Shown one piece after another: positions 9,064 to 47,087 of a stretch of DNA of 64,000 nucleotides; within the stretch, counting starts at the first letter, position 1, and every line of letters begins with the position of its first letter. Both the position numbers and the translations under genes were made by a program. The notes under the pieces are model-generated. The model was not told the origin of the DNA and searched no databases. It worked only from the letters and a program-made list of their open reading frames with translations. Source of the DNA: Dehalococcoidia bacterium (lineage in GTDB: Bacteria > Chloroflexota > Dehalococcoidia > Lucifugimonadales > UBA3495); contig OZ241860.1 of the NCBI GenBank assembly GCA_965203195.1, positions 1,986,334 through 2,050,333 on the forward strand, given 5' to 3'.

Positions 9064-9080
9064 GGTATTCTCCTGATTCT

Positions 9081-9216: not shown

Positions 9217-9376
9217 TGATGATTTCGGCTTGATGACCGGGGACGACATCAAGGCCAAGCTCCGTAATGGCTTGCGGTTGCAGGGACAACCAGGTAGCAC
9301 CGGTGTCCACCAGAAACGTGATCTGACGGGACATCAATGGACCATTGATAATACCTTGCGCAAAAGTTACGCCCAT
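9164..9376 (-). pseudogene. truncated retropepsin-like aspartic protease gene
   Basis: 70-aa ORF with FLVDTGATWLSL (DTG motif), only about 60% of the length of the 5620 paralogue. Its 3' end runs into MITE copy A. Confidence 0.45.
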
Positions 9377-9609
9377 ATTTTCCCTCTAATTCTGTTCCAA
9401 TCGCTTGTAACGGCAGTAGTAGCGGAGCTTGCTCCGACCGGGGCTGGCAGGGCAATGAGGTCGCCGTGAGCGCGGCAGGGGCAATGCGGTTGCGGGACAG
9501 GAAAATTGCCGGGGCTGTGCCGGGTGCGACGCCTTGCTGGCGGGGGTTCTGACCGGCTGGCGATGCTGCCCCGGTCAGCATAAGTGACGCCCATAGTATT
9601 GGCCCTTTG

Positions 9610-28776: not shown

Positions 28777-30345
28777 TTACGCGGTGGCCGGCGGCGCTTT
28801 CGGCCGGGCCAGTTCGGCCAGATAGTCCGTGGCCCACTGGCGGGCGATGCGGAGTTCAATGCGCCGGTCAATCGCCCGGTCGCCGTACCAGCGACCGTTG
28901 CGCCGGTTATCCTGGCGCAGGGCGGTCAGCGTCATCGTGTTGGATTTGCGCTTGTTGCAGGGGCCGCACAGCGGGGCGCGGTTCTCCAGCTCGTTGCTGC
29001 CGCCTTCGGAATCGGGCAGAATGTGGTCCAGCTCCAGAAACTCGGCGGTGGGCGGCTCAAAGCCGCAGCCCCAGCAGCGGACGCCCCACTGCTCAACCAG
29101 GATGTCCAGCATTTCCTGGCGGCGCATTGTAGCCGGCCGGCGGCGGCGGTACACCGGCCCCAGATGCGGGGCGCTTTCGCCATCATCGGTGCGCGCGGGC
29201 GGGATGTAGCGGATTTCACAGGCGGCTTGCAGCTGGGGCATCAGGCTCTGCTGCTGCGCCTTGAAATCGTCAACATTGATGCCCAGACCGAGCAGACGGT
29301 TGGCGACGTGATAGGCGGCATCCTCGCGGCGGTCGATGCCCACCCAGCGGCGGCCCAGATTCTGGGCGGCAATCGGCGTGGTGGCACACCCGCAAAATGG
29401 GTCCAGCACAATATCACCAGGGTTTGAGCCCGCCGCGACAATGCGTTCATACAGGGCCAGCGGCTTTTGGTCGGGCGAGCCGGTGCGCTCGCGACGCGGG
29501 GCGTGCATCATATCGGCAATGTCCGTCCAGGTATCGCCAAGCATTACATTTTCGATGACATCATTGCCACGAGTCTCCAAGTCGTATCTGATTCTGATGT
29601 TACCGCTTGCCGTGCGGTGAATCCTACTTTCCGATTCCAGACGCGCAACGCTGGAATCGGTATAGTTCCCGCGTGGGGCCGTTTTAAAAGCCTGGCCGTT
29701 ATTGTCGATGCGGATGTGCGACGGGAGGGATGACTTCGGATGGCGGATTTCCCCGCTTACCCGGTTGTACCGGGCTTCGGGCGACTTGCCGTAAACGTAG
29801 ATAATTTCGTGGTTACGCGGGAACTGGCGGGATGTAGCCTTTCCTCCGCGGCCGCTTTTCCCATAAACCCAAATTACCTCGTTCCTGAAATTCCGCTTGC
29901 CAAAGATGGCGTCCAATACCATGCGGATATAGGCATTGGCGCTGTGGTCGCAGTGCAGGTAGATGCTGCCCGTCGGTTTCAGCACCCGGTGCATTTCCAG
30001 CAGGCGGACGCCCAGGAAGCAGAGGAACGCCGCCGTGTCGTCGTCCTGCGTCATCCGGGTGGATTCGATGACCTGGAACAGGGCCCGGTTTTCGTCCTGG
30101 ATTTGGTCCAGCCAGATGCGGTGGACGGGTTGCCAGAGCCACTGGTCAGGGCGGTTCAGCATAGTCGGGTCGTCGGCCCAGCGCCAGGCGTCCTCGTACT
30201 GGCTGGCCGAGGCGGCGCGGTTGCGCTTTTTGTTGAAAGGCGGGTCGGTGGCGATTAGGTCCACGGTTTCGCTGTTCATCCCGCGCAGGACATCCAGGTT
30301 GTCCATATTGTAGAGGACGCGGTCGGGGAAGTTCTGCTGGGCCAT
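28777..30345 (-). CDS. beta-class N4/N6 DNA methyltransferase fused to a C-terminal HNH endonuclease domain (copy 1)
   Basis: Motif IV LIATDPPFNKKRN, motif I VLDPFCGCATTPIAA, C-terminal CWGCGF...LELDHILPDSEGGSNELENRAPLCGPCNKRK (HNH). ATG 30345 has AGGAG upstream. Confidence 0.85.
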   Translation of the reverse strand: MAQQNFPDRVLYNMDNLDVLRGMNSETVDLIATDPPFNKKRNRAASASQYEDAWRWADDPTMLNRPDQWLWQPVHRIWLDQIQDENRALFQVIESTRMTQDDDTAAFLCFLGVRLLEMHRVLKPTGSIYLHCDHSANAYIRMVLDAIFGKRNFRNEVIWVYGKSGRGGKATSRQFPRNHEIIYVYGKSPEARYNRVSGEIRHPKSSLPSHIRIDNNGQAFKTAPRGNYTDSSVARLESESRIHRTASGNIRIRYDLETRGNDVIENVMLGDTWTDIADMMHAPRRERTGSPDQKPLALYERIVAAGSNPGDIVLDPFCGCATTPIAAQNLGRRWVGIDRREDAAYHVANRLLGLGINVDDFKAQQQSLMPQLQAACEIRYIPPARTDDGESAPHLGPVYRRRRPATMRRQEMLDILVEQWGVRCWGCGFEPPTAEFLELDHILPDSEGGSNELENRAPLCGPCNKRKSNTMTLTALRQDNRRNGRWYGDRAIDRRIELRIARQWATDYLAELARPKAPPATA

Positions 30346-30416
30346 TGTGGGGTACTCCTGTCCTGCGACCATACTGTTGCCGGTATAATGAGGATTTCCG
30401 CAGCACTGTCCGGTTA

Positions 30417-30446
30417 GATATATTGTATTTACAGCGTCCGTGTCAA
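30417..30446 (-). promoter_or_regulatory. near-consensus sigma70-type promoter for MTase-HNH copy 1
   Basis: Minus strand reads TTGACA (30446-30441), N18, TATATC (30422-30417). It is an AT-rich island in GC-rich DNA, about 70 nt upstream of ATG 30345. Confidence 0.45.
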
Positions 30447-30455
30447 GTTGGGGCA

Positions 30456-30537
30456 GTTCCCGGCGATGAAGGTTATTTTTGCCGCCGCGCGCAACGCCGG
30501 GGCGCAGGGGGCGCACCTGATGCCGGCGGCGGAATAA
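30456..30537 (+). pseudogene. remnant copy of the thrB 3' end (internal 141-bp deletion)
   Basis: 30456-30505 matches thrB 28534-28583. 30506-30537 matches thrB 28725-28756, including the TAA stop. The junction falls in a shared ggcgc microhomology. Confidence 0.85.
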
Positions 30538-30589
30538 AGCGGGGCCGGGCCGCGCCGGGCCGCTTGCCCGCATTGAATCGCCTTGCCGT

Positions 30590-32053
30590 CTATTCCCGCA
30601 ATTCCGCCGGCACCGGAAAGTCTTTGATAAATGACTTGGCGTATGACATCCAGCCGCCCTGGTAGGGTCGTCCGGTCTGCCGGATGTAAAAGTCCATATC
30701 ATCCGAATTCAGCGCCGACAGCAGACGCTTCCGGTCGACGCCGGGCTTGGGCTTGACGCAGTAGCCGGAATAAAAGGTCGCATCCGCGTTGGGGCAAACC
30801 TGAAAGTTGGGGCGCCGGTTCATGCCGGAGGTCAAAATCTTGTCGCCAAACCCGGAGACGATGGAAACCTGCCGGCCGAAAGCGTACCAGCGCGCCGGGT
30901 CAAATCGCCCCTTGTCCCGGTTGAGCAGCCGTTCCCGGTGGGAAATCAGCCACCGGTAGGCCACGGGAGCATTGGCGGCAATATCGCCTTCGGGCAGCAG
31001 CCGGCCGTGGTCATCATACGGGAAAATGGCGACGCGGCGCACCGGATCCTGCCCGTCGCGCATCACCGACGCTTTGACCACGGGGCGCAGGAGCCGGGGT
31101 TCCAGCCCGATGGCGCGGGCCTCGCCCGCCGGCAGGATGAATACCCGGTCGGCCAGTGTCTGTATGCCTACATGGATGTCCGCAACCGCCGCCAGGCGCG
31201 GCCCCCGGCGGGCCAGTTCCTGCATCCGCCGCCGTTCCGCCGCCGTGGCCGCCAACCAGGTATGCGCGGGATTGCCGGCGTCCAACGCGATTGCCCCGGC
31301 GTCATAGAAACGCGCGCCGTCATACTTTGATACCGGGATGTCTGCCGGCGCGCCGTCTTTTCGTATGATGGTGACGGCGGTGTAGGTGGTAACATCGTCA
31401 AAGACTTGGTGTTCGCCGAAGTCAATAATTCGTTCCACCCGGTGGGATTGCGCCAGCAACTGGCGCAGTGCCGCCCCGGAGGCCGACCGCAGCCAGCTGG
31501 AGGGGGCAATGTAGCCCAGCAAACCGCCGCTGCCGAGCAGGGCCAATCCCAGCTCGTAAAACACCAGGAACAAATCAGTGGCGCCGCGCGTAACGCGCCA
31601 GCGGCCGGCGATGCGATGGCGGCCTGACTGCTCCAGATGCTGCACCCGCACATAAGGCGGGTTGCCGACGATATGCGTAAATCGGCCCCAATCGGCGGCG
31701 AAAGCGTCCCGGTCAAAAGCATTTCGTACTTGCAGGTTCCATTGGACCCGCGCGCCGGGATGCCATTGAGCCAGAGTGTCATCCAGGCGGGAGCGGCAGC
31801 GGGCGATGGCGGCGGCGTCTATGTCGTAGCCGGCCATACGGCCCAGAGCGGCCAGGGCATCGGCGCGGCCCAGGCGCGTCAGCAGCCGGCGGGCCACGGC
31901 GACCAGAAAGGCTCCTTCGCCGCAGGCCGGGTCGCAGATGGATGCCGCGCCCAGCCCGTCGGCGCCGGCCGGCAGCGCATTGTCTAGTACCAGAGCCACG
32001 ATGGACGCCGGGGTATAGACTACGCCTTGCCGCTTGCGGGTGGAAATACTCAT
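30590..32053 (-). CDS. gamma-class N6-adenine DNA methyltransferase (Eco57I/TaqI-like), M subunit of type II R-M pair 1
   Basis: VVYTPASIV, motif I ICDPACGEGAFLVA, motif IV IVGNPPYVRV. The ATG overlaps the upstream R gene stop (ATGA). Confidence 0.85.
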   Translation of the reverse strand: MSISTRKRQGVVYTPASIVALVLDNALPAGADGLGAASICDPACGEGAFLVAVARRLLTRLGRADALAALGRMAGYDIDAAAIARCRSRLDDTLAQWHPGARVQWNLQVRNAFDRDAFAADWGRFTHIVGNPPYVRVQHLEQSGRHRIAGRWRVTRGATDLFLVFYELGLALLGSGGLLGYIAPSSWLRSASGAALRQLLAQSHRVERIIDFGEHQVFDDVTTYTAVTIIRKDGAPADIPVSKYDGARFYDAGAIALDAGNPAHTWLAATAAERRRMQELARRGPRLAAVADIHVGIQTLADRVFILPAGEARAIGLEPRLLRPVVKASVMRDGQDPVRRVAIFPYDDHGRLLPEGDIAANAPVAYRWLISHRERLLNRDKGRFDPARWYAFGRQVSIVSGFGDKILTSGMNRRPNFQVCPNADATFYSGYCVKPKPGVDRKRLLSALNSDDMDFYIRQTGRPYQGGWMSYAKSFIKDFPVPAELRE

Positions 32054-32739
32054 GGCGACAGGCGTCTCAATTCAATGCGTCGGGCCATACGCGGGAAAAA
32101 CAGCGGGACGCGCAGCGCATTGTCCAGCGCGGCGCAGCCTTCGGCGCTGATGCCCATTGCGGCGGGGTTGGCAATGCCGATTATGGCGTTGGCGTCGGTA
32201 TCCAGCTCAGCAATGCCGATTGCCATTTCCTGCGGGGCGTGAATATGCTCGTGGTCGGCGCGGAGCCGGGCGTAGCGCTGGATGTCATTATCTCTGATGG
32301 CTTCCCGGCGCACAATCTGCCCGGCCCGGTTTTTGTAGGGTATAGGGTTGGTTACACAGAAAAGGTTGCCGTACACAATGTTGCGGCGACGCAGGTTGGC
32401 GGTTTCGCCAATCTGCTGCTCCAGGTAGTTGACGGAGTTTTGCCAGTAATTGGAGATGACAAACTTGACGCTGATTACCCCCAGTTCCTCGCCATCCCGC
32501 GCGACAAGCACATCAACATTTTTGTCGTAATACATACCGACAACGCCGGCTTCCTGCGCGCTGACCGGAGATTGCCCGGTGAAAGTGTACCCGTCTCCCA
32601 GCTCGCGACGCAACTCATCCTGCACCCAACCGTGCAGGACTTTGGTCTTTTCATTGGAACGAACGCCGTGCCGGAGTACCATCCGGTAGGATTCCTGCAT
32701 CGCCGCCAGGAAGCGTTGCTCTACACTGTCGGTTGGCAT
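32050..32739 (-). CDS. putative type II restriction endonuclease (R subunit of pair 1)
   Basis: 229 aa with a PD-(D/E)XK-like KNVDVLVARDGEELGVISVKFVISNY. 4-nt overlap with the methylase gene. GC visibly lower than in the neighbouring genes. Confidence 0.6.
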   Translation of the reverse strand: MPTDSVEQRFLAAMQESYRMVLRHGVRSNEKTKVLHGWVQDELRRELGDGYTFTGQSPVSAQEAGVVGMYYDKNVDVLVARDGEELGVISVKFVISNYWQNSVNYLEQQIGETANLRRRNIVYGNLFCVTNPIPYKNRAGQIVRREAIRDNDIQRYARLRADHEHIHAPQEMAIGIAELDTDANAIIGIANPAAMGISAEGCAALDNALRVPLFFPRMARRIELRRLSP

Positions 32740-33045
32740 CTGTTCACCTCAATTTCAATAGCAAGTTACGCCAATGGGCATCTTGGTCAAAGCGTTGCCC
32801 AACCCGGCCATTGTTGGAACGATGGTACCGCAGAGCGTGGGTTGGGCGCAAGCGCTGCTGTACCGGGTTAGGATTATTCAAAACTCAGAAAGGATCGAAA
32901 CGCGCTACGAATTCCGTCACTTTCGTGAGCAATTTCCGCAATCGCCCGCGCATCGTTCCCACGCCAGATCACCAGCCATGTCCCCAATCGACTCTGGGGG
33001 ATTATAGCACCGCAGGCCCTCCAGAACGAACCCCACGAACGCGCG

Positions 33046-33078
33046 CCAAAGAAAACCGGCCGCTCGGCAAGCGGCCGG
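33046..33078 (-). terminator. intrinsic-terminator-like hairpin (orphan)
   Basis: Minus strand shows a 9-bp perfect stem ccggccgct/agcggccgg with a 5-nt loop, followed by ttttctttgg. It lies just outside the IS end and has no intact upstream gene. Confidence 0.45.
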
Positions 33079-33168
33079 CCCGGAACGCTATCGGCAGACA
33101 TCCAACAAACAGGACGCCAGCCTGCTTGGCCGACTATCCCACGCTACGCTCCGTCGCCTTTTTCGCCA

Positions 33169-33978
33169 GGCCGTGTTGACATTTCAGCGTAGCCAGATGA
33201 GGGCCGCCGCAAAATGCCAAAACCCCAAGTAGCGCCGGCTCAATTTCTCAAACCGGGTGAACACCCGCCGGTAGCGCTTCACTTTGCCAATAAAGCACTC
33301 CACCAAATGACGCTCGCCGTACAGGTCCGGATCATACACCACCACTACCTTCCGGTTGGAACGCCCCGGTATCACCGCCGTCATCCCCAACTCCGCAATC
33401 CACTCCCGCAGCCACTGGGCATCGTATCCCTTGTCCGCAATCACATACTCGCCGGCGTAGCCGGACAGCAACGCTTCGGCCTGGGTAATATCGTTCTCCT
33501 GGCCTCCCGTCAGGATGAACCGCAAAGGATTGCCCAGCCCGTCCACTGTGATGTGTACTTTGGTACTGAACCCGCCCCGACTGCGCCCTAACGCTTGAGC
33601 GTCTTGACCGCCCCCTTTTTCGGGGCGCCGGCGGCGTCGGGATGAGCGCGGACGATGGTACTGTCAATGATGAGGTATTCGGTGTCCGGGTCATCGGCCA
33701 AGTGTTGGTGGAGCGCCGTCCAGATGCCACGGTCGCACCAGTTGGCGTAGCGTCGGTAGATGGAGTTCCATTTGCCGTATTCCGCAGGCAGCATTCGCCA
33801 GGGGGCGCCGGAGCGGGCAATCCAAAGTACGGCGGTAACGAAGCGTCGGCAATCGGTTTCACAGCCGACGTAGAGGTCGGAGCGGCTGCGGAGGAAGGCG
33901 AGGATTTTGTCCCATTGGTAGGATGTCAGTTCCAAGTTTGCCATGCCGCAATGATAACACCAAAATGTCAACACGACC
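33169..33978 (-). mobile_element. IS5-family (IS427/IS1031-like) insertion sequence, copy 1
   Basis: About 17-bp terminal inverted repeats: GGCCGTGTTGACATTT at the left end and AAAATGTCAACACGACC at the right end. The element is about 810 bp and has a two-frame transposase. Confidence 0.85.
33184..33944 (-). CDS. IS5-family DDE transposase, orfA-orfB joined by a -1 frameshift
   Basis: orfA is MANLELTSYQWDKIL...GAPKKG. The slippery AAAAAG lies at 33620-33615. The -1 frame continues GGGQDAQALGRSRGGFSTKVHITVDGLGNPL...ADKGYD...ERHLVECFIGKVKRYRRVFTRFEK. Confidence 0.85.
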
Positions 33979-33980
33979 TA

Positions 33981-34790
33981 GGCCGTGTTGACATTTCAGC
34001 GTAGCCAGATGAGGGCCGCCGCAAAATGCCAAAACCCCAAGTAGCGCCGGCTCAATTTCTCAAACCGGGTGAACACCCGCCGGTAGCGCTTCACCTTGCC
34101 AATAAAGCACTCCACCAAATGACGCTCGCCGTACAGGTCCGGGTCATACACCACCACTACCTTCCGGTTGGAACGGCCCGGTATCACCGCCGTCATCCCC
34201 AACTCCGCAATCCACTCCCGCAGCCACTGGGCATCGTACCCTTTGTCCGCAATCACATACTCGCCGACGTAGCCGGACAGCAGCGCTTCGGCCTGGGTAA
34301 TGTCGTTCTCCTGGCCTCCCGTCAGGATGAACCGCAAAGGATTGCCCAGCCCGTCCACTGTGATGTGCACTTTGGTACTGAACCCGCCCCGACTGCGCCC
34401 TAACGCTTGAGCGTCTTGACCGCCCCCTTTTTAGGGGCGCCGGCGGCGTCAGGATGGGCGCGGACGATGGTGCTGTCAATGATGAGGTATTCGGTGTCCG
34501 GGTCATCGGCCAAGTGTTGGTGGAGCGCCGTCCAGATGCCGCGGTCGCGCCAGTTGGCGTAGCGTCGGTAGATGGAGTTCCATTTGCCGTATTCCGCAGG
34601 CAGCATTCGCCAGGGGGCGCCGGAGCGGGCAATCCAAAGTACGGCGGTAACGAAACGGCGGCAATCGGTTTCACAGCCGACGTAGAGGTCGGAGCGGCTG
34701 CGGAGGAAAGTGAGGATTTTGTCCCATTGGTAGGATGTCAGTTCCAAGTTTGCCATGCCGCAATGATAACACCAAAATGTCAACACGGCC
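33981..34790 (-). mobile_element. IS5-family insertion sequence, copy 2 (head-to-tail with copy 1, separated by TA)
   Basis: Same inverted repeats (perfect GGCCGTGTTGACATTT / AAAATGTCAACACGGCC). It is flanked by TA on both sides. It is near-identical to copy 1, with scattered substitutions. Confidence 0.85.
33996..34756 (-). CDS. IS5-family DDE transposase, orfA-orfB joined by a -1 frameshift
   Basis: Same architecture as copy 1, with the slippery AAAAAG at 34432-34427. Confidence 0.85.
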
Positions 34791-34850
34791 TAGGGTAGGG
34801 CAAAGTCCGGCGGCAGTACGGACGAACCGCAAAGGAGGGCAACCGGCCTT

Positions 34851-35309
34851 ATGAATCTGATGAACCGGGTGATCACCGGCGGCTACTGGGTGGCGTACTA
34901 CCTGGTCTATGCGCTCGGTGTGGTATATTTGACGTGCCATTTCCGGCGCGAGTTGCCGTTTCTGGTCGCCGGGCCTGGGCAGCTGGATTTGCACCAGCTG
35001 TTTATACTGGCCGCCATCTTCGCGGTGGCGGGGGGAACGGCGCTGTTCGTGGCAATCAATGTGGAGGTGACCGGACGCATGGTTTTGCTGATACCCAAAG
35101 CGTGGAACAGGGCGAAAGCCGAGGGCCGGGCGGAGGGCCTGACTACGGGTCGGGCGGAGGGCTTGACCGAGGGCCTGACTGTGGGGCAGGCCGAGGAACG
35201 GGACCGGGTGCAGGCCATTCTGTCCCGGTACGCGCGGCGCGACCCGGCAACCGGGGAACTTGTCCTGGACCGGGACGCCGAGGAACGCCTGCGCAACGGC
35301 AAGGGCTAG
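34851..35309 (+). CDS. small membrane protein with EG-repeat (paralogue of 1137-1574)
   Basis: Hydrophobic N-terminal half, then KAEGRAEGLTTGRAEGLTEGLTVGQAEE. Confidence 0.55.
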   Translation: MNLMNRVITGGYWVAYYLVYALGVVYLTCHFRRELPFLVAGPGQLDLHQLFILAAIFAVAGGTALFVAINVEVTGRMVLLIPKAWNRAKAEGRAEGLTTGRAEGLTEGLTVGQAEERDRVQAILSRYARRDPATGELVLDRDAEERLRNGKG

Positions 35310-35320
35310 GCTGCGCGCCA

Positions 35321-35432
35321 GCCGCGTTTCTTTATCGGGTGGTTTGGCGGCGGGCCGGCAGCCCATCCCGCCGGCGAAAGCCGGCCGGCCGGAATGACCG
35401 GAAAACCAAACCACCTGACCGGAAACGCTACC
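35321..35432. repeat. MITE/REP-like hairpin element, copy D
   Basis: The left arm is gccgcgtttc...ggtggtttgg and the right arm is ccaaaccacctgaccggaaacgctacc. The core is cccatcccgccggcgaaagccggccggccggaatgaccgg. Confidence 0.55.
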
Positions 35433-35555
35433 GCCTAACCGGGAACGACACCGGGGCGATAGCCGCAGCAGCGCTGGCCGCCGCCGGTGTAGCATCCCGC
35501 CGGCCGGTGTAGTATCCTGCCGGCTATGGACGCGCTGCCCGGCATTCCGCCTTCC

Positions 35556-35645
35556 ATTCCGGTTGAGCCGGTTCCGGTTGAACCGATTCGGACTGAACCG
35601 ATTCCGGTTGAGCCGGTTCTGATTGAGCCGGTTCTGATTGAGCCG
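35556..35645 (+). repeat. 15-bp tandem repeat (ccgRttcYgRttgaR, about 6 units) abutting the acetyltransferase ATG
   Basis: Read directly from the sequence. If translated from ATG 35526 it would encode (PVEPx)n. Confidence 0.7.
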
Positions 35646-36206
35646 ATGACGCCCGCCGACTGGCCGGCCGTGCGGCGCATTTACGCGGAGGGCATCGCCA
35701 CCGGGCAGGCTACCTTTGAGACGGAAGCGCCGGGCTGGGATGCCTGGAACCGCAGCCACCTGCCCCTATGCCGCCTGGTGGCCCGCGCCGCCGGCAGTGG
35801 CAACGGCGCTGATAGCGGCAGAGATGGCGATGGCAGTAGCGGCGGCAATGGCGGGAATAACGCCGGCGGCGTTCTGGCCTGGGCGGCCCTGTCGCCCGTG
35901 TCGGGCCGCGCCTGTTACTCGGGTGTGGCCGAACACAGCATCTATGTTGACGCCGCCGCCCGGGGACGGGGCATCGGCAAACTGCTGCTGGGCGAACTGG
36001 CGCGGCAGTCGGAAGCCGCCGGCATCTGGACATTGCAGAGCAGCATATTCCCGGAAAACGCCGCCAGCATTGCTATCCACCTGGCGTGCGGCTTCCGCAT
36101 CCTGGGCCGCCACAAGCGGGTAGCGATGCACAACGGCGTCTGGCGCGACACCGTAATTATGGAACGCCGCAGCAATGTAGTCGGAGTCGAAGGTATGCAA
36201 CACTAG
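35646..36206 (+). CDS. GNAT N-acetyltransferase, phosphinothricin-acetyltransferase-like, with Gly/Asn/Ser insert
   Basis: MTPADWPAVRRIYAEGIATGQATFETE...EHSIYVDAAARGRGIGKLLL...NAASIAIHLACGF. Confidence 0.75.
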   Translation: MTPADWPAVRRIYAEGIATGQATFETEAPGWDAWNRSHLPLCRLVARAAGSGNGADSGRDGDGSSGGNGGNNAGGVLAWAALSPVSGRACYSGVAEHSIYVDAAARGRGIGKLLLGELARQSEAAGIWTLQSSIFPENAASIAIHLACGFRILGRHKRVAMHNGVWRDTVIMERRSNVVGVEGMQH

Positions 36207-36340
36207 CATTGATTACAGGTACGATACTTGCTCTCGATGTCAACGGCTAGTTTGTCGTCGGCTTCTGCCAGCCGATACAACAAAGCAGAGATAGCGTACA
36301 TCTGGCTATCATAATCAAAATCGAAACCGGTATATTCCAT
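36203..36340 (-). CDS. 45-aa hypothetical ORF downstream of MTase-HNH copy 2
   Basis: Product is MEYTGFDFDYDSQMYAISALLYRLAEADDKLAVDIESKYRTCNQC. The ATG lies 18 nt after the methylase stop, with GGGGTGA upstream. The segment is markedly AT-richer than its surroundings. Confidence 0.3.
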   Translation of the reverse strand: MEYTGFDFDYDSQMYAISALLYRLAEADDKLAVDIESKYRTCNQC

Positions 36341-36357
36341 GATTGTCACCCCGCTTT

Positions 36358-37749
36358 TCAGGCCGCAATCCCCATTTCCCGCAGGCGGGCCAGCAGGTAT
36401 TCCTGCGATCGGACGCCCTTGACGCGGTTGCAGTGGCCGCAGAGGAGTTGCAGGTTTTCAATGTGGTCGGCGCCGCCGGCGGACTGGGGGATGATGTGGT
36501 CAACCTCCATATGCCGGAACTCAAAGGCGGAGCGGCAGCCCCGGCAGCGGCCCTCCTGCTGCCCAAAGAGGATGTGCCGGTTCTGGCGGTAGGGGCGGGG
36601 CGCGTCAATGTCAGTGCGGCGGGGTATGTCGGCGCGGGCGGTTACCAGGCGGTTGTGAAAGAGGTTGCCCATTGACTGCCGCAAGCGCATATTGACCAGC
36701 TCCACGGCCTTGGGCGAGATGTCAATGCCAATCCAGCGGCGGCCCAGCTGCTCGGCGGCCACGCAGGCGGTGGCGCAGCCGCAGAACGGGTCCAGCACTA
36801 CATCGCCGGGGTTGGACGAGGCTTTGATGATGCGTTCCAGCAGGGCCAGCGGCTTTTGCGTGGGATAGCCGATGCGCTCTTTGGCTTGGGATGCAATGGG
36901 CGATATGTCCGTCCAAATATCCTGCAACGGCACGCCGGGCATTTCATCAAGATAACGCTTATATTGAGGCACACCTCCCGGCCTTCTCTGGACTATCCGG
37001 CCCTCGTCAATCAGTTCCTGCATTCGCGCTTCGCTGTAACGCCAGTACCGGGTCACTCCCATCATTTCGTAATGCGGGTTGCCTTTGGAGGCACCGCCGG
37101 GGGCGGTCAGATCGCTCAGCCTGTAACGGCGGTTGGTTCCCGGCTCTGTGTACCTGTAGAACTTGGCTACATACTCCGGGTTATAGGCCGTATAGACCGG
37201 GTTCCAGTTCCATTGGTCCGACTTGGTGTAAAAAAGCAGGATGTCGTGAATGCGGCCATGCTGCCGTCGGCCTTGTCGGGTATCGCTATGGGCGTTAGTG
37301 CGCCGCCAGGTAATTTCGCTGCGGAAATTGCCGGCGCCGTAGATGCTGTCCAGCAGCAGTTTGAGGTAATGGCCGGCGGTGGGGTCGCAGTGCAGGTAGA
37401 TGGAGCCGGTGTCTTTCAGCACGCGGCGCATTTCCAGCAGTCGGACGGCCATCATACAGAGGTAGGATTGCATTCCCTTGCCGTGGGTGAGGCCGGCGGC
37501 GGCCAGGGCCTGGTAGAGGGCGGGCTGTTGGTCGGCGACTAGGCCCATCCAGGCGGTGTCCAGGTCGGACAGGGTCCAGGTGTCCTTGAAGGCGGCGCCG
37601 GCGGCGGCGCTGCCCACGGGGGCGGCGTAGTTGCGGTTGGAGTTGAAGGGCGGGTCGAGGTAGATGAGGTCAACCGAGGCGGAGTTGAGGCCGCGCAGGA
37701 TGTCCAGGTTGTCGCCCGTCCAGATGGTTTTGTCGGCGAAGTTGGTCAT
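36358..37749 (-). CDS. beta-class N4/N6 DNA methyltransferase fused to a C-terminal HNH endonuclease domain (copy 2)
   Basis: Motif IV LIYLDPPFNSNRNY, motif I VLDPFCGCATACVAA, C-terminal CRGCRSAFEFRHMEVDHIIPQSAGGADHIENLQLLCGHCNRVKG. Confidence 0.85.
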   Translation of the reverse strand: MTNFADKTIWTGDNLDILRGLNSASVDLIYLDPPFNSNRNYAAPVGSAAAGAAFKDTWTLSDLDTAWMGLVADQQPALYQALAAAGLTHGKGMQSYLCMMAVRLLEMRRVLKDTGSIYLHCDPTAGHYLKLLLDSIYGAGNFRSEITWRRTNAHSDTRQGRRQHGRIHDILLFYTKSDQWNWNPVYTAYNPEYVAKFYRYTEPGTNRRYRLSDLTAPGGASKGNPHYEMMGVTRYWRYSEARMQELIDEGRIVQRRPGGVPQYKRYLDEMPGVPLQDIWTDISPIASQAKERIGYPTQKPLALLERIIKASSNPGDVVLDPFCGCATACVAAEQLGRRWIGIDISPKAVELVNMRLRQSMGNLFHNRLVTARADIPRRTDIDAPRPYRQNRHILFGQQEGRCRGCRSAFEFRHMEVDHIIPQSAGGADHIENLQLLCGHCNRVKGVRSQEYLLARLREMGIAA

Positions 37750-37764
37750 AGTGATTGCCTGGCT

Positions 37765-38138
37765 TCACCCGTTGCGGGCCAGGCCCGGCGCGGCCAGAGG
37801 TTCCATTATGTCCAGGAATCGCTCCAAATCGAGCAGGTCGCCGGCCACGTTCGCGGCATTATCCCAGTTCTCATAAAAATTTGCCTCGAGGCTGATGGCA
37901 ACCTGGAACAGGACCGGATGTCGTCGTCGCCGGTTTCGGAGGCCAGCCGGGAGATGACATTATAGAGGGCGGCATGGTCGTGATGCGCCCAACCGCGTCG
38001 CACGGCCACGGATTTGACGATTTGGGCGGCGGCGGCCCAGCCCTTTTGGGATGCCTGGCGGGTGTCGCCGGCGGCGAGTTCCTCACGCGCCTGCGTCAGC
38101 AGGTGCCGGCTGGCGGTCTGATAAGTTTGCGCTACCAT
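37765..38138 (-). pseudogene. HEPN-like (PaREP1-type) paralogue 1, frameshifted
   Basis: Same N-terminus as paralogues 2-4 (MVAQTYQTASRHLL...). A 1-nt deletion within 37903-37920 relative to paralogue 4 shifts the frame. The shifted frame restores LFQVAISLEANFYENWDNAANVAGDLLDLERFLDIMEPLAAP. Confidence 0.7.
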
Positions 38139-38148
38139 AGATTGCCTC

Positions 38149-38505
38149 CTACGGCGTGGCCAGCGGTTCCAGCTGGTCCAGGAACTGTGCGATGTCGTCA
38201 AGACTGTCGGCCACGTTCGCGGCGTTATTCCAGTTTTCGTGGAAGTTCACCTGGAGGTTGCCGGCAACGTCGAACAGCCGCCGTATGTCCTCGTCTCCGG
38301 TTTCGTCCGCCAGTCTCCGGATGACGCGATACAGGGCGGCATGGTCGTGATGCGCCCAGCCGCGCGTTTCGGCTACGGATTTGACGATTTGGGCGGCGGC
38401 GGCCCAGCCCTTTTCGGATGCCTGGCGGGTATCGCCAGCGGCGAGTTCCTCATGCGCCTGCGCCAGCAGGTGGCGGCTGGCGGTCTGGTAGGTTTGGGCT
38501 ACCAT
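38149..38505 (-). CDS. HEPN-like (PaREP1-type) paralogue 2
   Basis: 118 aa: MVAQTYQTASRHLLAQAHEELAAGDTRQASEKGWAAAAQIVKSVAETRGWAHHDHAALYRVIRRL.... GGAGGC lies upstream. Confidence 0.75.
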   Translation of the reverse strand: MVAQTYQTASRHLLAQAHEELAAGDTRQASEKGWAAAAQIVKSVAETRGWAHHDHAALYRVIRRLADETGDEDIRRLFDVAGNLQVNFHENWNNAANVADSLDDIAQFLDQLEPLATP

Positions 38506-38515
38506 AGATTGCCTC

Positions 38516-38872
38516 CTACGGCGCGGCCAGCGGTTCCAGCCGGTCCACAAACCGCTCAATTCGGGACAGGGCGCCGGCTACGTTTTCGGCGTTGTCCCAA
38601 TTTTCGTAAAAGTTGGTGTGGAGGGCGTTGGCGATATGGAACAGGTCGCGGATGTCGCCATCGCCGGTTTCGTTGGTCAGGCGCCTGACGACGCGATACA
38701 GGGCGGCATGGCTACCGTGTTCCCATCCGCGTCGCGCGGCTACGGATTTGACGATTTGGGCGGCGGCGCCCCAGCCTTTTTCGGAGGCTTGGCGGGTGTC
38801 GCCGGCGGCGAGTTCCTCATGCGCCTGCGCCAGCAAATGCCGGCTGGCGGTCTGATAGGTTTGCGCTACCAT
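38516..38872 (-). CDS. HEPN-like (PaREP1-type) paralogue 3
   Basis: 118 aa, same pattern (…VAARRGWEHGSHAALYRVVRRL…). GGAGGC lies upstream, with a 10-nt spacer to the next gene. Confidence 0.75.
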   Translation of the reverse strand: MVAQTYQTASRHLLAQAHEELAAGDTRQASEKGWGAAAQIVKSVAARRGWEHGSHAALYRVVRRLTNETGDGDIRDLFHIANALHTNFYENWDNAENVAGALSRIERFVDRLEPLAAP

Positions 38873-38882
38873 AGATTGCCTC

Positions 38883-39239
38883 CTACGGCGTAGCCAGCGG
38901 TTCCAGCTTATCCAGGAACTGTGCGATGTCATCCAGGTCGCCGTCCACGCTCACGCCGGGTATCCAGTTTTCGTAGAAATTTGCCTCGAGGCTGATGGCA
39001 ACGTTGAACAGCCGGCGTATATCGTCGTCGCCGGTTTCAGCGACCAGCCTGGAGATGACGATAAAGAGGGCGGCGTGGTCGTGATGCGCCCAACCGCGCG
39101 TTTCGGCTACGGATTTGACGATTTGGGCGGCGGCGGCCCAGCCCTTATGGGATGCCTGGCGGGTGTCGCCGAGATACAAATCCGCGCGGGCTTGCGCCAG
39201 CAGGTGACGGCTGTCGGCTGGGCAGGTTGGCATTGCCAT
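38883..39239 (-). CDS. HEPN-like (PaREP1-type) paralogue 4
   Basis: 118 aa with a divergent N-terminus (MAMPTCPADSRHLLAQARADLYLGDTRQASHKGW...). The remainder is conserved. Confidence 0.75.
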   Translation of the reverse strand: MAMPTCPADSRHLLAQARADLYLGDTRQASHKGWAAAAQIVKSVAETRGWAHHDHAALFIVISRLVAETGDDDIRRLFNVAISLEANFYENWIPGVSVDGDLDDIAQFLDKLEPLATP

Positions 39240-39350
39240 AGGTCAATCCATGCTGGCAGCGGTACGGACGGCGTTGCCATCCGGTCTGCGGGGCGTACGC
39301 AGAGCGTGGTTGGGCCGGTTCAAGGTTAGCCTGTTTCAGGGAAGTTCCGG

Positions 39351-39716
39351 CTAGGCTTCGAGGGCCTTGGCCAGCTTCGCCAAAGTGGCCTTCGGGTTGA
39401 GCGCGGAGCGGCGCGCCAGCTGGTGCAAGTGGCGCAGCCGGAGGGCCTGTTCGCCGGTTGCGAGACTCTCATTCGAAAGCGTCGCGAATTTGTGGCTGGT
39501 CTCCAAAACCTCGGCCGTGTAGCCGTCATCGTCAAAAATTTCAAGCTGATGGCGGGCCGCAGGAGAGTATTTGCCGGTACTCAACTCCCGCACCACAACC
39601 GCGATGGTATCTACGGATGTCACGAACGCGTCGTTGGTCACGGAAGGACGCCAGCGCAATTTCCCGTCATCGGTTTGCCGGATCAATCCTTCCAAAATCC
39701 GGTCCATTTCGCTCAT
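39351..39716 (-). CDS. hypothetical 121-aa protein
   Basis: Clean ORF, translationally coupled (ATGA overlap) to the upstream TM-protein gene. I recognise no motif in it. Confidence 0.55.
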   Translation of the reverse strand: MSEMDRILEGLIRQTDDGKLRWRPSVTNDAFVTSVDTIAVVVRELSTGKYSPAARHQLEIFDDDGYTAEVLETSHKFATLSNESLATGEQALRLRHLHQLARRSALNPKATLAKLAKALEA

Positions 39717-40237
39717 CTCGTGTCCTCCTGTTGATTGCCAAAGCCCAAGTCGCTGGCCAATTCCTCCAGGTCGCTCTGTATCAGGTTCAGTATCCGATAC
39801 AGCAACGCCGTGTCAGGTTCCTCACCGGGTTGTCCGAAGTGCGCTGCAACGAGGTTTTCCATCTCCCTGACAGCGACTATGGCGTCGGACAACCGGGCTT
39901 GGAACCCGGTTTGACCCTCCGGGCAGCGTTTGCGGATGTCGGACAGCATTTGCCGCAGCGACTGGTACTGCTCCAGAGCCGCATCCCACCGGCGGGCGCC
40001 GTGCAGGATTTTGATGCGCTGGATGAGAGCTATGGCGCGTTGCAGATCTACCGCTTGCAGATGGCGGGCGATGTCGCTGCGCGTTTCGTTGGCCGCGGCG
40101 CGCGCCGCCTGCGATGCGGAGCGGGCGCCCCGCGCCTCGATGATGGCCCACGCCAGCCCGGCAAGCGAAACGACCACGCCTGTAACGCTGGCTAAACTCC
40201 CCCAGTTGTCCGCCAAGTATCCCATCAGGTATTCCAT
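39713..40237 (-). CDS. hypothetical N-terminally membrane-anchored helical protein
   Basis: The start is taken at ATG 40237 (MEYLMGYLADNWGSLASVTGVVVSLAGLAWAII), giving one predicted TM helix and then a helical soluble domain. The track start 40399 adds an Arg/Cys-rich leader. Confidence 0.5.
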   Translation of the reverse strand: MEYLMGYLADNWGSLASVTGVVVSLAGLAWAIIEARGARSASQAARAAANETRSDIARHLQAVDLQRAIALIQRIKILHGARRWDAALEQYQSLRQMLSDIRKRCPEGQTGFQARLSDAIVAVREMENLVAAHFGQPGEEPDTALLYRILNLIQSDLEELASDLGFGNQQEDTR

Positions 40238-40326
40238 AATGCGAGGCCCAATATAGCGCCATCCCCACATACTGGCAAGGCATACTGGCAAGCAGCATTC
40301 CGGCAAGCCGGGCGGGCGCGGCGCGG

Positions 40327-40353
40327 TTGCGCTGCCCGTCTCTGTGCTAGAAT
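40327..40353 (+). promoter_or_regulatory. candidate promoter for the LLM oxidoreductase gene
   Basis: TTGCGC, N15, then tgcTAGAAT (extended -10-like), 84 nt upstream of ATG 40437. Confidence 0.35.
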
Positions 40354-40436
40354 GACGCCGGCAACGGCAGCGCCAACGCCCGCGCCATCCCGCGCTCAAC
40401 CCGTCCCCCGTCCCCCAACTTGCCAGGAGGCACTAT

Positions 40437-41603
40437 ATGACCGCCCCCGCCCGTATGAAATTCGGCGTATTTATGGCCCCTTTCCACCGGGTTGGCGAAA
40501 ACCCCACCCTCGCCCTGGAACGGGATCTGGAGCTGCTCCAGTGGCTGGACCATCTGGGCTACGATGAAGCCTGGATTGGCGAGCACCACAGCGCCGGCTG
40601 GGAAACCATCGCCTCCCCCGAAGTGTTTATGGCCACTGCCGCCGAGCGCACCCGCAACCTGCGCCTGGGCACGGGCGTGGTCAGCCTGCCCTACCACCAT
40701 CCCTATATGGTTGCCAACCGGATGGCGCTGCTGGACCACCTCACCCGCGGGCGGGTAATGCTGGGCGTGGGCCCCGGCGCTTTGGCCTCGGACGCCTATA
40801 TGTTCGGCATCGACCCGGCCCGGCAGCGGGAGATGATGGACGAGTCCCTGGGCGTCATCAAGCGGCTGATGGACAGCCCCGAACCGTACACTTATAAAAG
40901 CGACTGGTTTGAGCTGCACGACGCGCATCTCCAGCTGCGGCCTTACCAACAGCCCTTCCCGCTGGTGGTGGCGTCGGTGCAGTCGCCGGCCGGGGTGACT
41001 ACGGCGGGCAAGTACGGCGCCGGCGTCATTTCGTTGAGCGTGCCCCGCGATATGGTGCGTTCCACCAGCCTCAAGGATCAGTGGGCCATCGCCGAGGAAA
41101 CCGCCGCCGAACATGGGCAGACGGTGAAGCGCGCGGAATGGCGCCTCTCCGTGGGCGTCCACCTGGCGGAGAGCAAGAAGCAGGCGATGGCGGACATCCG
41201 CGAAGGCTCCGCCCGGGTAGTTACCGAATACTTCGGCAACACCCTGGGCCACGAAGTGCCGGATGTGCCGCGCGACCAGATCGTTGACTTTATGACCGAC
41301 AACAAGCAGTGGATTGTAGGCACGCCCGACGACTGCATCCAGCGTATCAACGAGCTGCAAGAGCTGTCCGGCGGCTTCGGCGGGATGCTGGTGCGGGTGG
41401 AGGACTGGGCGCCGCGGGACAAGCTGCATCGTTCCTACGAGCTGCTGGCGCGCTATGTGATGCCGCAGTTCCAGGGCACATTGACCGGCATACAGACTTC
41501 GCAGCAGTGGGCCGCCAACCTGCGGGAAACCTTGCAGGTCAACCGGCGCGCCGGCCTGGAACGCGCCACCCAAACCTACGAAGCGTCCCGCCGCGCATCC
41601 TGA
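40437..41603 (+). CDS. LLM-class (luciferase-like) flavin-dependent oxidoreductase
   Basis: MKFGVFMAPFH...LGYDEAWIGEHHSAGWE... is typical of luciferase-like monooxygenases. AGGAGG lies upstream of ATG 40437. Confidence 0.8.
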   Translation: MTAPARMKFGVFMAPFHRVGENPTLALERDLELLQWLDHLGYDEAWIGEHHSAGWETIASPEVFMATAAERTRNLRLGTGVVSLPYHHPYMVANRMALLDHLTRGRVMLGVGPGALASDAYMFGIDPARQREMMDESLGVIKRLMDSPEPYTYKSDWFELHDAHLQLRPYQQPFPLVVASVQSPAGVTTAGKYGAGVISLSVPRDMVRSTSLKDQWAIAEETAAEHGQTVKRAEWRLSVGVHLAESKKQAMADIREGSARVVTEYFGNTLGHEVPDVPRDQIVDFMTDNKQWIVGTPDDCIQRINELQELSGGFGGMLVRVEDWAPRDKLHRSYELLARYVMPQFQGTLTGIQTSQQWAANLRETLQVNRRAGLERATQTYEASRRAS

Positions 41604-41888
41604 CGCCTCGCGCCGGGCCGGCCATGCCGCGCAACGGGAAACTCGCCCGCCGGCCGGCCCGCGCGCGCCGCAGCGATCCTCCGTATTACGGGTACCGCGC
41701 ATTGCCGGCCCCGGCGCGGCGCCGCCGAATGCGTCCGCTCAGATCCCCGGCGGATACGGGCGGGCCGGCGCATTGCGCCGCCGCATACAGTATGAATATA
41801 GTGTAGTATATTGATTGTCCGTGGCCTATTGAGAACGATTCCCCATTCCCCGGCGGCAGCGCCGGCAATGAACGCGAGGGCAGGAACT

Positions 41889-43346
41889 ATGCGGAAGACC
41901 AAAATCATCGCCACCATCGGCCCCAAGTCCAACTCCCCCGAAGCGCTCAGCCAGCTGGTCGCCGCCGGCATGGATGTGGCGCGCCTCAACTTTTCTCACG
42001 GCACCCTGGAGGAACACGCCGCCGTCATTGCCAACGTGCGCGCGGCCTCCCGCCAGCACAACCGCCCCGTGGCCGTCCTGCAAGACCTCGGCGGCAACAA
42101 GTTCCGGCTGGGGCATATGGCCCAAGCCATCCAGCTCAATGTGGGCGACAGCGTGTCCATCGTCAACGAAAACGCTTCCGACGACGCCGGCCGCCTTCCT
42201 TTCCCGGAACCCGCCATTCTCCGCAACCTGCGCCCCGGCAACCGCGTGTTCCTCTCCGACGGCACCGTATGCCTGGAAGTGCAGGACATCGCCGCCGACC
42301 TGGAAATCAAAACCAGAGTCCTCATCGGCGGCAACCTGTCCTCTTACAAGGGCGTCAACCTGCCCGACGTTTCGATGGATATGCCCGTCATCACCGAAAG
42401 CGACAAAATCGCCCTGCAATTCGGCGTGGAACAGGGCGTGGACTGGGTTGCGCTCTCTTTCGTCCGCACCGGCGAGGACGTGCGTTACGCCCGCGCCTAC
42501 CTTAACCAGCTCAACAGCCGCGCCCCGGTAATGGCCAAGCTGGAGCGCCGGGAATGCGTGGACAACCTGGACGACATTCTCCACGCGGTGGAAGGCATCA
42601 TGGTCGCCCGCGGCGACCTGGGCGTGGAAATGCCGATGGAGGAGGTTCCCGGCATCCAGAAAAAAATGGTGCGCCGCGCCAACGAACTGGGCAAAATATC
42701 CTCCGTAGCCACCCAAATGCTGCGCTCCATGGTCAACTCGCCCACGCCCACCCGCGCCGAAATCTCGGACATCCACAACGCCGTGCTGGACGGCTGCGAT
42801 TCCATCCTCCTCTCCGACGAAATCGCCGTGGGCAACCACCCCGTAGAAGCCGTGCAAATCGCCGCTTCCACCATCGTTGAGGCGGAAAAGTCCTACGACT
42901 ACTACAAAGAGTTCCCTCAGCAGAACGGCCAGACCCAGGCCATTACCGGCGCCGCCGCGCGGCTCATCCAGTCCCTGGACGCCAAGCCCATCGTCATCAC
43001 CAGCACCGGGCGCGCGGCCTACGAAATGTGCCGCTTCCGCCCAGAGAACGACATCCTCGTCTTTTCCCACGAGGAAAGCGTGCAGCCCCGCGTGTGCATG
43101 GCCTGGGGTCTGGCCCCCAAGGGCGTCATTCCCGTGGAGCCCGATGTGGCCCGTCTGGTGGCTCGCCTGGTGGACGCCGCCCTGGCTACCGGGCTGGTCT
43201 CCGAATCCGACACTGCCGTCCTGGTGTACGGCTTCCTGCCCGGCGTCTCCGGCACGACCAACACCATCCAGGTGCTCAACATCCGCGAGTACCTGGACCA
43301 CATCGGACGCAGCGCCGTTCCCCACGCCGCCCCGGTTCCCGCCTAG
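41889..43346 (+). CDS. pyk: pyruvate kinase
   Basis: MRKTKIIATIGPKSNSPE...GMDVARLNFSHG...MVARGDLGVEMP. Confidence 0.95.
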   Translation: MRKTKIIATIGPKSNSPEALSQLVAAGMDVARLNFSHGTLEEHAAVIANVRAASRQHNRPVAVLQDLGGNKFRLGHMAQAIQLNVGDSVSIVNENASDDAGRLPFPEPAILRNLRPGNRVFLSDGTVCLEVQDIAADLEIKTRVLIGGNLSSYKGVNLPDVSMDMPVITESDKIALQFGVEQGVDWVALSFVRTGEDVRYARAYLNQLNSRAPVMAKLERRECVDNLDDILHAVEGIMVARGDLGVEMPMEEVPGIQKKMVRRANELGKISSVATQMLRSMVNSPTPTRAEISDIHNAVLDGCDSILLSDEIAVGNHPVEAVQIAASTIVEAEKSYDYYKEFPQQNGQTQAITGAAARLIQSLDAKPIVITSTGRAAYEMCRFRPENDILVFSHEESVQPRVCMAWGLAPKGVIPVEPDVARLVARLVDAALATGLVSESDTAVLVYGFLPGVSGTTNTIQVLNIREYLDHIGRSAVPHAAPVPA

Positions 43347-43478
43347 CCGCCTAAACCTTACCGCCCGACCCTGGCACCGGACGCCGCCCGGTGTCCGGGC
43401 CGGCCCCACACCTGCCCAAGACACACCGGCATCCCACCGCATTGCCCCTCGCCTCTGCCGCCACAACGGAGACCCGCA

Positions 43479-43835
43479 ATGACCTATTCCGAATACGCCC
43501 GCTGCGCCCGCAAGTTCCTTGTCGACTCCGACCGCGAATTCGCCGTCGGCGAAAGGCAGCAGGCATCCGAAAAGCTCTACGGCGCCGCCAACGAAGCCCT
43601 TACCGCCGTCGCAATCCGGCGCGGCTGGAAATACCGCACCCACCGGGATATGAAAAACGCCGCCCAGCGACTGGCCGCCGAGCTGGACGACCCCTTCCTG
43701 GTAGGCGGGTTCGGCCTCGCCGAAAAATTCCACAAAAACTTTTTCCACGACGAAATGGAGGACTACGAAATCGCATCCGACCGCCCCTACGTTCATCTGT
43801 ATGTCAACCGGGTGCTGGCCCTGCTGGATGGCTAA
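43479..43835 (+). CDS. solitary divergent HEPN-like (PaREP1-type) protein
   Basis: 118 aa: ...DREFAVGERQQASEKLYGAANEALTAVAIRRGWKYRTHRDM...AEKFHKNFFHD. It has the same length and helix pattern as the 38-39 kb array. Confidence 0.65.
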   Translation: MTYSEYARCARKFLVDSDREFAVGERQQASEKLYGAANEALTAVAIRRGWKYRTHRDMKNAAQRLAAELDDPFLVGGFGLAEKFHKNFFHDEMEDYEIASDRPYVHLYVNRVLALLDG

Positions 43836-43848
43836 CACCCAAACGGCG

Positions 43849-43877
43849 ATGACATCCCCGCCCCAATAGGCTATAAT
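43849..43877 (+). promoter_or_regulatory. candidate ileS promoter
   Basis: ATGACA (43849-43854), N17, TATAAT (43872-43877), 39 nt upstream of ATG 43917. Confidence 0.5.
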
Positions 43878-43916
43878 CCCGTTCTAACCGCAAACTGCCA
43901 CCGAGGTATCCCGGCT

Positions 43917-47087
<3,171 letters not shown>

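Follow-up and report, generated by a model that had tools for sequence, protein, structure and literature searches.

We analysed a gene cluster on contig OZ241860.1 of a Dehalococcoidia bacterium (GCA_965203195.1), within a stretch of 64,000 nt that is referred to below as the window. Coordinates are those of the window, and L-numbers denote comparison loci. An earlier note on this DNA had proposed that eight co-directional genes form a defence module here: a transmembrane (TM) protein gene and its partner, four HEPN-like paralogues, a methyltransferase (MTase) fused to an HNH domain, and a tiny open reading frame (ORF). Every plausible gene from 40237 to 36203 does lie on the minus strand and the co-directional layout is real, but the genes had been over-counted, since one is frameshifted and another is a stump. 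The cluster consists of six intact co-directional genes, one frameshifted PaREP1 copy and one gene stump. The intact genes encode a TM protein (TM174), a small protein (P121), three PaREP1/HEPN proteins (from genes of 357 bp each) and a beta-class MTase-HNH fusion.

Genes and signals of the cluster

The first two genes, TM174 (39713..40237; 174 aa) and P121 (39351..39716; 121 aa), are on the minus strand, as are all other genes of the cluster, and overlap by ATGA, as the earlier note had read them. In its AlphaFold2 (AF2) model (pLDDT 93.7) TM174 is all-helical, with a long N-terminal TM helix that leads into a cytoplasmic four-helix bundle, while P121 is modelled as a small alpha-beta4-alpha2 protein (pLDDT 87.7). 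Neither protein had a match in Pfam or NCBIfam or a convincing PADLOC model. Comparison of the AF2 models with PDB folds gave nothing significant, and comparison with a viral fold library gave only low TM-score matches to uncharacterised phage proteins, including one marginal match for P121 (E 8.8e-4, TM-score 0.41). The TM174 family comprises 616 cluster representatives at E≤1e-3, and none of the 74 P121 homologues is annotated. A TM174-family gene stands ahead of P121 in all loci examined, usually with a 4-nt overlap, and the pairing was seen in L081-L086, L167, L169, L170, L171-173 and L179.

Two candidate roles for this pair were rejected. A partly conserved R74-x4-H79 had prompted the idea that TM174 is a membrane-anchored HEPN protein, but its profile-profile probability against PaREP1 was only 0.7%. 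P121 was considered as the missing antitoxin of PaREP1, but each gene is found without the other. TM174 also has some likeness to the Eleos system (LeoA/LeoBC), as 22 of 75 family members weakly match the C-terminal region of the PADLOC LeoBC model (best E 2e-7; 0.003 for the window protein). This match covers the TM/helical stretch only and may be compositional and, unlike Eleos, the cluster lacks LeoA as well as any dynamin-like GTPase domain.

The PaREP1 array follows after a gap of 111 nt, close to the 110 nt given earlier, and forms a 367-bp tandem repeat in four copies (repeat family D1/D2). Copies 1 (38883..39239), 2 (38516..38872) and 3 (38149..38505) are exact 357-bp ORFs of 118 aa with 10-nt spacers. 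They match PF05942 (PaREP1/PaREP8, HEPN clan) with 51.9 bits (E 8e-14), 73.6 bits (E 1.5e-20) and 62.5 bits (E 4e-17), respectively, against a gathering threshold of 24.4 bits. The description of four equal genes holds for these three copies but not for copy 4 (37765..38138), whose intact form, of 124 aa, was read from an alignment to its orthologue in L081 (9611-9985). Relative to that intact 375-bp gene, copy 4 has a 1-nt deletion near position 37914 (ATCCGCGTCC to ATCCG-GTCC), and the ORF as read therefore stops at 37806. The repeat spacing at this copy is 366 instead of 367, and the PaREP1 hidden Markov model matches both halves. Only in the repaired frame does the copy end at 37765, 15 nt ahead of the methylase, as the earlier note had it; as the sequence stands it does not. 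The frameshift could be either a true pseudogene or an assembly error. The note had also given each HEPN-like gene its own GGAGGC, which is correct for copies 2, 3 and 4, all preceded by TAGGAGGCAATCTATG, but not for copy 1.

A fifth, divergent PaREP1 gene lies outside the operon on the plus strand (43479..43835; 48.7 bits, E 8.5e-13), between the genes for pyruvate kinase and isoleucyl-tRNA synthetase. With the array copies it shares 23-30% identity; it carries the motif RGWKYRTH and keeps its position in the sister strain L082 (4272-4628). At 49-74 bits, these small proteins are members of the PaREP1/PaREP8 family of the HEPN clan, which bears out their description as HEPN-like. Residues R48, W50 and H55 are invariant in all 32 aligned relatives and make up RGWxHxxH, an R-x6-H HEPN motif. 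The PaREP1 profile also matches the Sulfolobus PaREP1 structure (PDB 2q00/2jpu; E 2e-4, a sequence-profile match only). Pairwise ratios of non-synonymous to synonymous substitution rates (dN/dS) among paralogues and orthologues are 0.17-0.64, and the genes are therefore protein-coding and under purifying selection. We found no match to a nucleotidyltransferase family among the cluster products, and hence no adjacent MNT/nucleotidyltransferase gene. Judging from their sequences, the PaREP1 proteins are predicted to be metal-independent RNases.

The MTase-HNH gene (36358..37749) encodes 463 aa, with a beta-class N6/N4 MTase domain (PF01555, E 8e-43) and a C-terminal zinc-finger HNH domain (PF01844, E 7e-14), in line with the earlier assignment. 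Motif IV (DPPF, residues 32-35) precedes motif I (DPFCGCAT, near residue 320). The HNH finger has the complete CxxC...DH...N...CxxC pattern (CRGC...EVDHIIP...ENLQLLCGHCN) and is a putative nuclease by sequence. The protein matches PADLOC MTase_II and has CcrM, MboIIA and RsrI as PDB relatives. An exact-sequence look-up of the window protein returned no match; the fusion as such is very common (at least 8000 matches), with an HNH domain in all of the best 120. In GenBank phages the closest relatives are about 50% identical or less and cover the MTase domain only. A prophage origin of the cluster was considered and rejected, as IMG/VR contained no P121 or PaREP1 relatives and only distant partial MTase matches. 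No separate cognate restriction endonuclease gene lies beside the methylase, whose neighbours are PaREP1 genes and the gene stump. Its predicted role is to modify the DNA of the host and to nick or cleave DNA that is not so marked.

Behind the methylase, the earlier note had placed a tiny AT-rich ORF. A small ORF of 44% GC is indeed present (36349/36340..36203), but it is an N-terminal remnant (36203..36349), the first ~40 codons of a low-GC gene of 211 aa. A tblastn search with the product of the intact gene in L001 (11732-12367) gave 59% identity over 32 aa, and the GC content is 44% in both. In L001 the 211-aa gene lies downstream of the methylase; its product carries an Rx4H motif (RNKMFHH) and has weak Csx1/HEPN-region matches (E 0.03-0.04; two homologues). 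Between the MTase-HNH and GNAT genes there is thus this stump in the window; in sister strain L082 there is a 290-aa gene (L082 11437-12309, minus strand) with no Pfam or PADLOC match, and in L081 there is nothing. The islet thus differs between strains at its downstream end as well.

The cluster is flanked by a divergent luciferase-like monooxygenase (LLM) gene on one side and the convergent GNAT gene on the other, as the note had stated. Signals of an operon type are the co-orientation of all genes and the ATGA overlap of TM174 and P121. A promoter-like site (TTGCCA-17-TATATT; 40250..40278, minus strand), a pattern match from a consensus scan and its sequence context, ends 12 nt before the TM174 ATG; the head of the cluster has no second site of this kind. 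No minus-strand terminators were found between the cluster genes, and Rfam detected no RNA family over window positions 32000-44500.

Recurrence and separability of the three modules

We examined the neighbourhoods of 80 MTase-HNH relatives (62-89% identical) from species-representative genomes. All relatives are from Dehalococcoidia/Chloroflexota metagenome-assembled genomes (MAGs), and the isolate names of several look like sponge-microbiome bins. Most of the species-level copies are single and lie among metabolic genes. PaREP1 genes stand directly upstream of the methylase in L001 (three copies), L025 (two copies) and L003 (one copy), and three tandem PaREP1 genes of a divergent subfamily do so in L074. 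As a rough expectation, the 80 loci (~1.7 Mb) with their ~6-9 non-adjacent PaREP1 genes would give ~0.02 loci with a same-strand PaREP1 gene just upstream, and 3-4 were observed. The L074 genes (8160-9439; 134, 128 and 109 aa) all start with MTLPVAARNIFTDAQAVHAQALERLEAGD..., are without the RGWxH motif and lie between an M20-type amidohydrolase gene and the MTase-HNH gene.

The stand-alone MTase-HNH genes mostly have a TAAAAT box ~10 nt before the ATG, and the cassette copies are without it. A (G)TGCTAAAATC-like box of this kind, ~10 nt ahead of the start codon and about 10-20 nt upstream of the MTase-HNH ATG, was noted in L004-L008, L017, L024, L037, L041, L046, L052, L063 and L080, which suggests very short-leader or leaderless transcripts of the stand-alone genes. 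In the window, the TATATT hexamer 12 nt before the TM174 ATG is likewise close to the start. A conserved 66-aa ORF (MKTVAEIQQAILELPEADYAQLSRWFHELDW...) lies ~0.4-1.2 kb downstream of the MTase-HNH gene in L003, L006, L008, L017, L025, L026, L031, L041 and L055, often with a second small conserved ORF (MSFRPQRDKPLPKGLVHG...) ahead of it, and the two look like an addiction-module-type pair.

Look-ups of close PaREP1 homologues returned the trio of TM174/P121, PaREP1 and MTase-HNH in 3/3 cases. Four flanking contexts and three gene orders were seen for the trio, which is always co-oriented and has spacings that range from a 4-nt overlap to ~110 nt. Downstream of the pyruvate kinase and LLM genes the order is TM-P121-PaREP1x3-5-MTaseHNH (window, L081/L082, L171-173), and in L171-173 the final PaREP1 gene and the start of the methylase gene share an ATGA overlap. 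Where a class-V aminotransferase gene lies on one side and an Fe-S oxidoreductase gene on the other, the order is TM-P121-PaREP1x2-MTaseHNH-NYN in L167, NYN-PaREP1x3-TM-P121-MTaseHNH in L086 and PaREP1x3-MTaseHNH-211aa in L001. L083 has TM-P121-MTaseHNH (truncated) and L179 has PaREP1-MTaseHNH (93-aa stump)-TM-P107. The PaREP1 copy number ranges from 1 to 5 across loci, MTase alleles from different clades of the MTase tree are found within one and the same architecture, and NYN nuclease and 211-aa Rx4H genes join the same hot spot. The NYN-domain genes that flank the cassette lie at L086 3530-4057 (with PADLOC HEC-09 and NYN matches) and L167 8898-9518. Whether homologues of the cluster genes stay linked elsewhere had been posed as a check, and the outcome is divided: the three gene types are linked again in differing contexts and orders, but the modules also occur apart. 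Since each module is able to exist, and presumably to work, on its own, the association is facultative.

We favour the reading, with about as much doubt as confidence, that the locus is a strain-variable, facultative and modular operon-type defence cassette of three separable modules, and not a fixed eight-gene machine. The modules may be functionally linked, because the neighbourhood persists while its flanks, gene order and alleles change, and stays co-oriented and tightly packed, which is the usual signature of such a link. Several observations weigh against this reading. The upstream PaREP1 array is absent in 76 of the 80 species-level MTase-HNH loci and TM174/P121 in all 80. Among 80 metagenomic PaREP1 loci, many of them on short contigs or with distant PaREP1 genes, neither the MTase-HNH fusion (0/80) nor P121 (0/80) was present, and L098 and L120 had only an MTase-domain match; tandem or clustered PaREP1 genes were frequent in this sample. 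The methylase is a stump beside intact neighbours in L083 and L179, TM174 and P121 stand alone in L170 and L084/85, and L169 has the pair with PaREP1 and no methylase. All these loci come from a single group of Dehalococcoidia-like MAGs and are phylogenetically non-independent. As for the promoter, it is a pattern match of a kind found three times where 1.5 were expected in the consensus scan. Finally, the non-methylase components were unmatched in PADLOC-DB v2.0.0 (none or chance-level for P121 and PaREP1) except for the weak match of TM174 to LeoBC.

The occurrence of each module alone, the unfixed gene order and the persistence of methylase stumps near intact neighbours are also what mere co-location would produce. 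Under that explanation, independent selfish or defence elements, namely a solitary restriction-modification (R-M)-like MTase-HNH, a toxin-antitoxin (TA)-like PaREP1 and a TA-like TM174/P121, gathered in hot spots of insertion or recombination and are inherited together without working together. PIN, ParE-like, FitA-RHH and HTH genes of the TA type adjoin MTase-HNH in other loci, and the cluster has insertion sequence (IS) copies and a further R-M-like set next to it; both observations fit this explanation. It is harder to square with the co-oriented, tightly spaced trio in four flanking contexts, with an architecture that is kept despite the swap of methylase alleles, with cassette methylases that are without the promoter box of the solitary copies, and with PaREP1-methylase adjacency above the rough expectation. 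We regard co-location as a somewhat unlikely explanation.

The comparison of loci also bears on a single integrated eight-gene system that would need every one of its components. The co-directional, tightly spaced genes speak for such a system, as does the conservation of the whole set in L081/L082 and L171-173. However, the window has a frameshifted PaREP1 copy and L082 a broken one, the tiny ORF is what is left of a longer gene, PaREP1 copies number anywhere from one to five, and the modules occur alone, with most MTase-HNH loci having no upstream PaREP1 array. An obligate eight-gene system is already contradicted by these comparative data, as read from sequence, and we consider it highly improbable.

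Strain-level variation and surroundings

The locus of the window is also present in two sister strains, L081 and L082. Amino acid identity between the window and these strains is 99-100% for the flanking pyruvate kinase and LLM, 85-89% for GNAT, 94-95% for MTase-HNH, 75-82% for TM174 and only 58-59% for P121. There is a breakpoint within TM174 relative to L081, with 104/105 identical residues in the N-terminal part and 34/63 in the C-terminal part. The C-terminus of the window TM174 and P121 (78%) are closer to the allele of L171-173, which is from another species, than to those of the sister strains. As both resemble the L171-173 allele, they switch together, as a cognate interacting pair would. 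The best reading of TM174 and P121 is that they are a translationally coupled cognate pair, in which P121 co-varies with the C-terminal part of the bundle. PaREP1 genes number three in the sister strains (one of them broken in L082), four in the window and four to five in L171-173. The copies are chimeric between strains, and the PaREP1 array is recombining actively. The accessory setting that had been ascribed to the cluster is borne out, and it lies in a hypervariable, accessory islet.

This variation is relevant to a role outside defence, in which MTase-HNH would be an orphan, epigenetic or homing-type selfish enzyme, PaREP1 would be RNA-processing, regulatory or inert, and TM174/P121 would have a housekeeping membrane role. 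In favour of such roles, no function has been assigned to PaREP1 in any organism (PMC3632139), MTase-HNH copies are found among metabolic genes, and hits in PADLOC are lacking. Extreme allelic divergence between near-identical strains is difficult to reconcile with them, as are the conserved catalytic motifs and the repeated recruitment of nuclease genes; the chimeric paralogues, pseudogenes and IS neighbours seen here are what conflict loci typically show. We therefore hold a non-defence role to be very doubtful and retain the modular cassette as the preferred reading.

Partner-less HEPN genes next to an MTase-HNH gene are not confined to the window. The window in addition has the fifth PaREP1 gene and a second MTase-HNH fusion (28777..30702, minus strand; 641 aa) that is 35% identical to the first and has the same domain order. 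After this second fusion (to 32739) come a 487-aa Eco57I/N6_Mtase-type methylase with a TaqI_C specificity domain and a 229-aa protein without a family, and a similar pair of an Eco57I-type and a 229-aa protein lies beside the P121 locus in L083. Two tandem small IS copies occupy 33168-34794 (812-bp period, 98% identical, two ORFs each). Their proteins carry DUF4096 and DDE_Tnp_1 annotations in L081, and the IS is not at the matching position in L082. A perfect 20-nt inverted repeat (33977-33996 / 34775-34794) frames the right copy. The GNAT gene (35526-36206) contains a 15-nt tandem repeat at 35556-35660, which corresponds to ~7 N-terminal pentapeptide units (PVEPI/PVEPV/LIEPV).

Relation to known systems and proposed function

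At the core of the proposed cassette is the MTase-HNH, which would be a self-sufficient, single-chain R-M-like enzyme. Single-chain R-M enzymes include those of Type IIC/IIG (Eco57I/MmeI), which in their classical form combine an N-terminal PD-(D/E)xK nuclease with a gamma-class MTase. The fusion shares with these and with HNH restriction enzymes the combination of an MTase and a nuclease in one chain, and its HNH domain has the D-H...N...H residues and two CxxC pairs. It differs from Type IIC/IIG enzymes in having a beta-class MTase with a short C-terminal HNH domain, and in its closest phage relatives only the MTase part is covered. A literature search for an MTase-HNH fusion as a named system found nothing.

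The PaREP1 array and the TM174/P121 pair would have been attached to this core repeatedly in one lineage. We propose that the modules share a transcript from a promoter ahead of TM174 and work in layers. MTase-HNH would work on DNA and the HEPN paralogues on RNA, as a growth-arrest or abortive back-up by analogy with the logic proposed for PrrC/PrrI and other R-M loci with linked HEPN genes, and the TM174/P121 pair would serve as a third effector or a sensor, probably acting at the membrane. The PaREP1 array would grow, shrink and recombine via unequal crossing-over.

The linkage of HEPN genes with R-M systems as layered defence has precedents, as at least 16 HEPN clades are linked to R-M systems (Anantharaman et al. 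2013; PMC3710099). PaREP1 is absent from the R-M-linked clades that these authors list (PMC3710099). As in PrrC-EcoprrI and other R-M-embedded HEPN genes, for which a layered-defence logic has been proposed, an RNase-type HEPN gene is here co-oriented with a DNA modification/restriction enzyme. In contrast to those loci, the HEPN protein has neither an ABC-ATPase nor another sensor domain, hsdMSR genes are absent, the "R-M" part is one MTase-HNH polypeptide and the HEPN gene is tandemly multiplied. The small HEPN proteins also resemble those of HEPN-MNT type II/VII toxin-antitoxin systems in their size, their Rx4-6H motif and their being candidate toxins. The cluster differs from these systems in that it has no MNT gene and the neighbours of each HEPN gene are more HEPN paralogues.

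There is also a close likeness to the PaREP1/PaREP8 proteins of Crenarchaeota, which are likewise small single-domain proteins (~115-130 aa) without an MNT partner and with tandem paralogues, and to which the window proteins are tied by PF05942 scores above threshold and by the profile match to 2q00. PaREP1 has been described as archaeal, tandemly repeated, without an identified partner and without the motif arginine (PMC3710099, PMC3632139), and was thought to be nearly confined to thermophilic archaea (PMC3632139). Here, the host is instead a bacterium, a mesophilic sponge-type member of Chloroflexota, R and H are both invariant (RGWxHxxH) where the archaeal family is described without the R, and the array is linked to MTase-HNH and TM174/P121. 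The earlier note knew of no described system of this kind. That stands for the combination of PaREP1, MTase-HNH and TM174/P121, which we did not find in the literature, but not for its elements, as tandem partner-less PaREP1 genes and HEPN/R-M linkage have both been published (PMC3710099, PMC3632139). We likewise found no description in the literature of a bacterial PaREP1 subfamily with a complete R-x6-H motif or of its recombining arrays, nor of a PaREP1 operon with MTase-HNH or of the co-varying TM174/P121 pair.

A tighter form of cooperation would make the locus one integrated new defence system. The PaREP1 RNases would then be partner-less toxins that are restrained by MTase-HNH, P121 or heteromer formation among the diversified paralogues, and set free once the restriction layer is knocked out. 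A role as sensor or second effector would fall to the membrane pair, and recombination of the array would generate specificity variants. We consider this integrated system improbable. The locus is a good candidate for experiments, although not a categorically new one.

PaREP1 occurs here in bacteria that are mesophilic symbionts. Its catalytic motif is complete, and its genes are tandemly multiplied, reshuffled and recurrently wired to a single-chain methylase-nuclease and a membrane pair, in a strain-level hypervariable islet documented in otherwise identical genomes of the sponge-symbiont type. If the modules do not cooperate, the locus is still a well-described hot spot of defence and TA genes. 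If they do cooperate, it would be a new example of DNA-plus-RNA layered immunity, would add a new family of gene pairs, in which TM174 has more than 600 cluster representatives, and would provide a testable context for the function of PaREP1.

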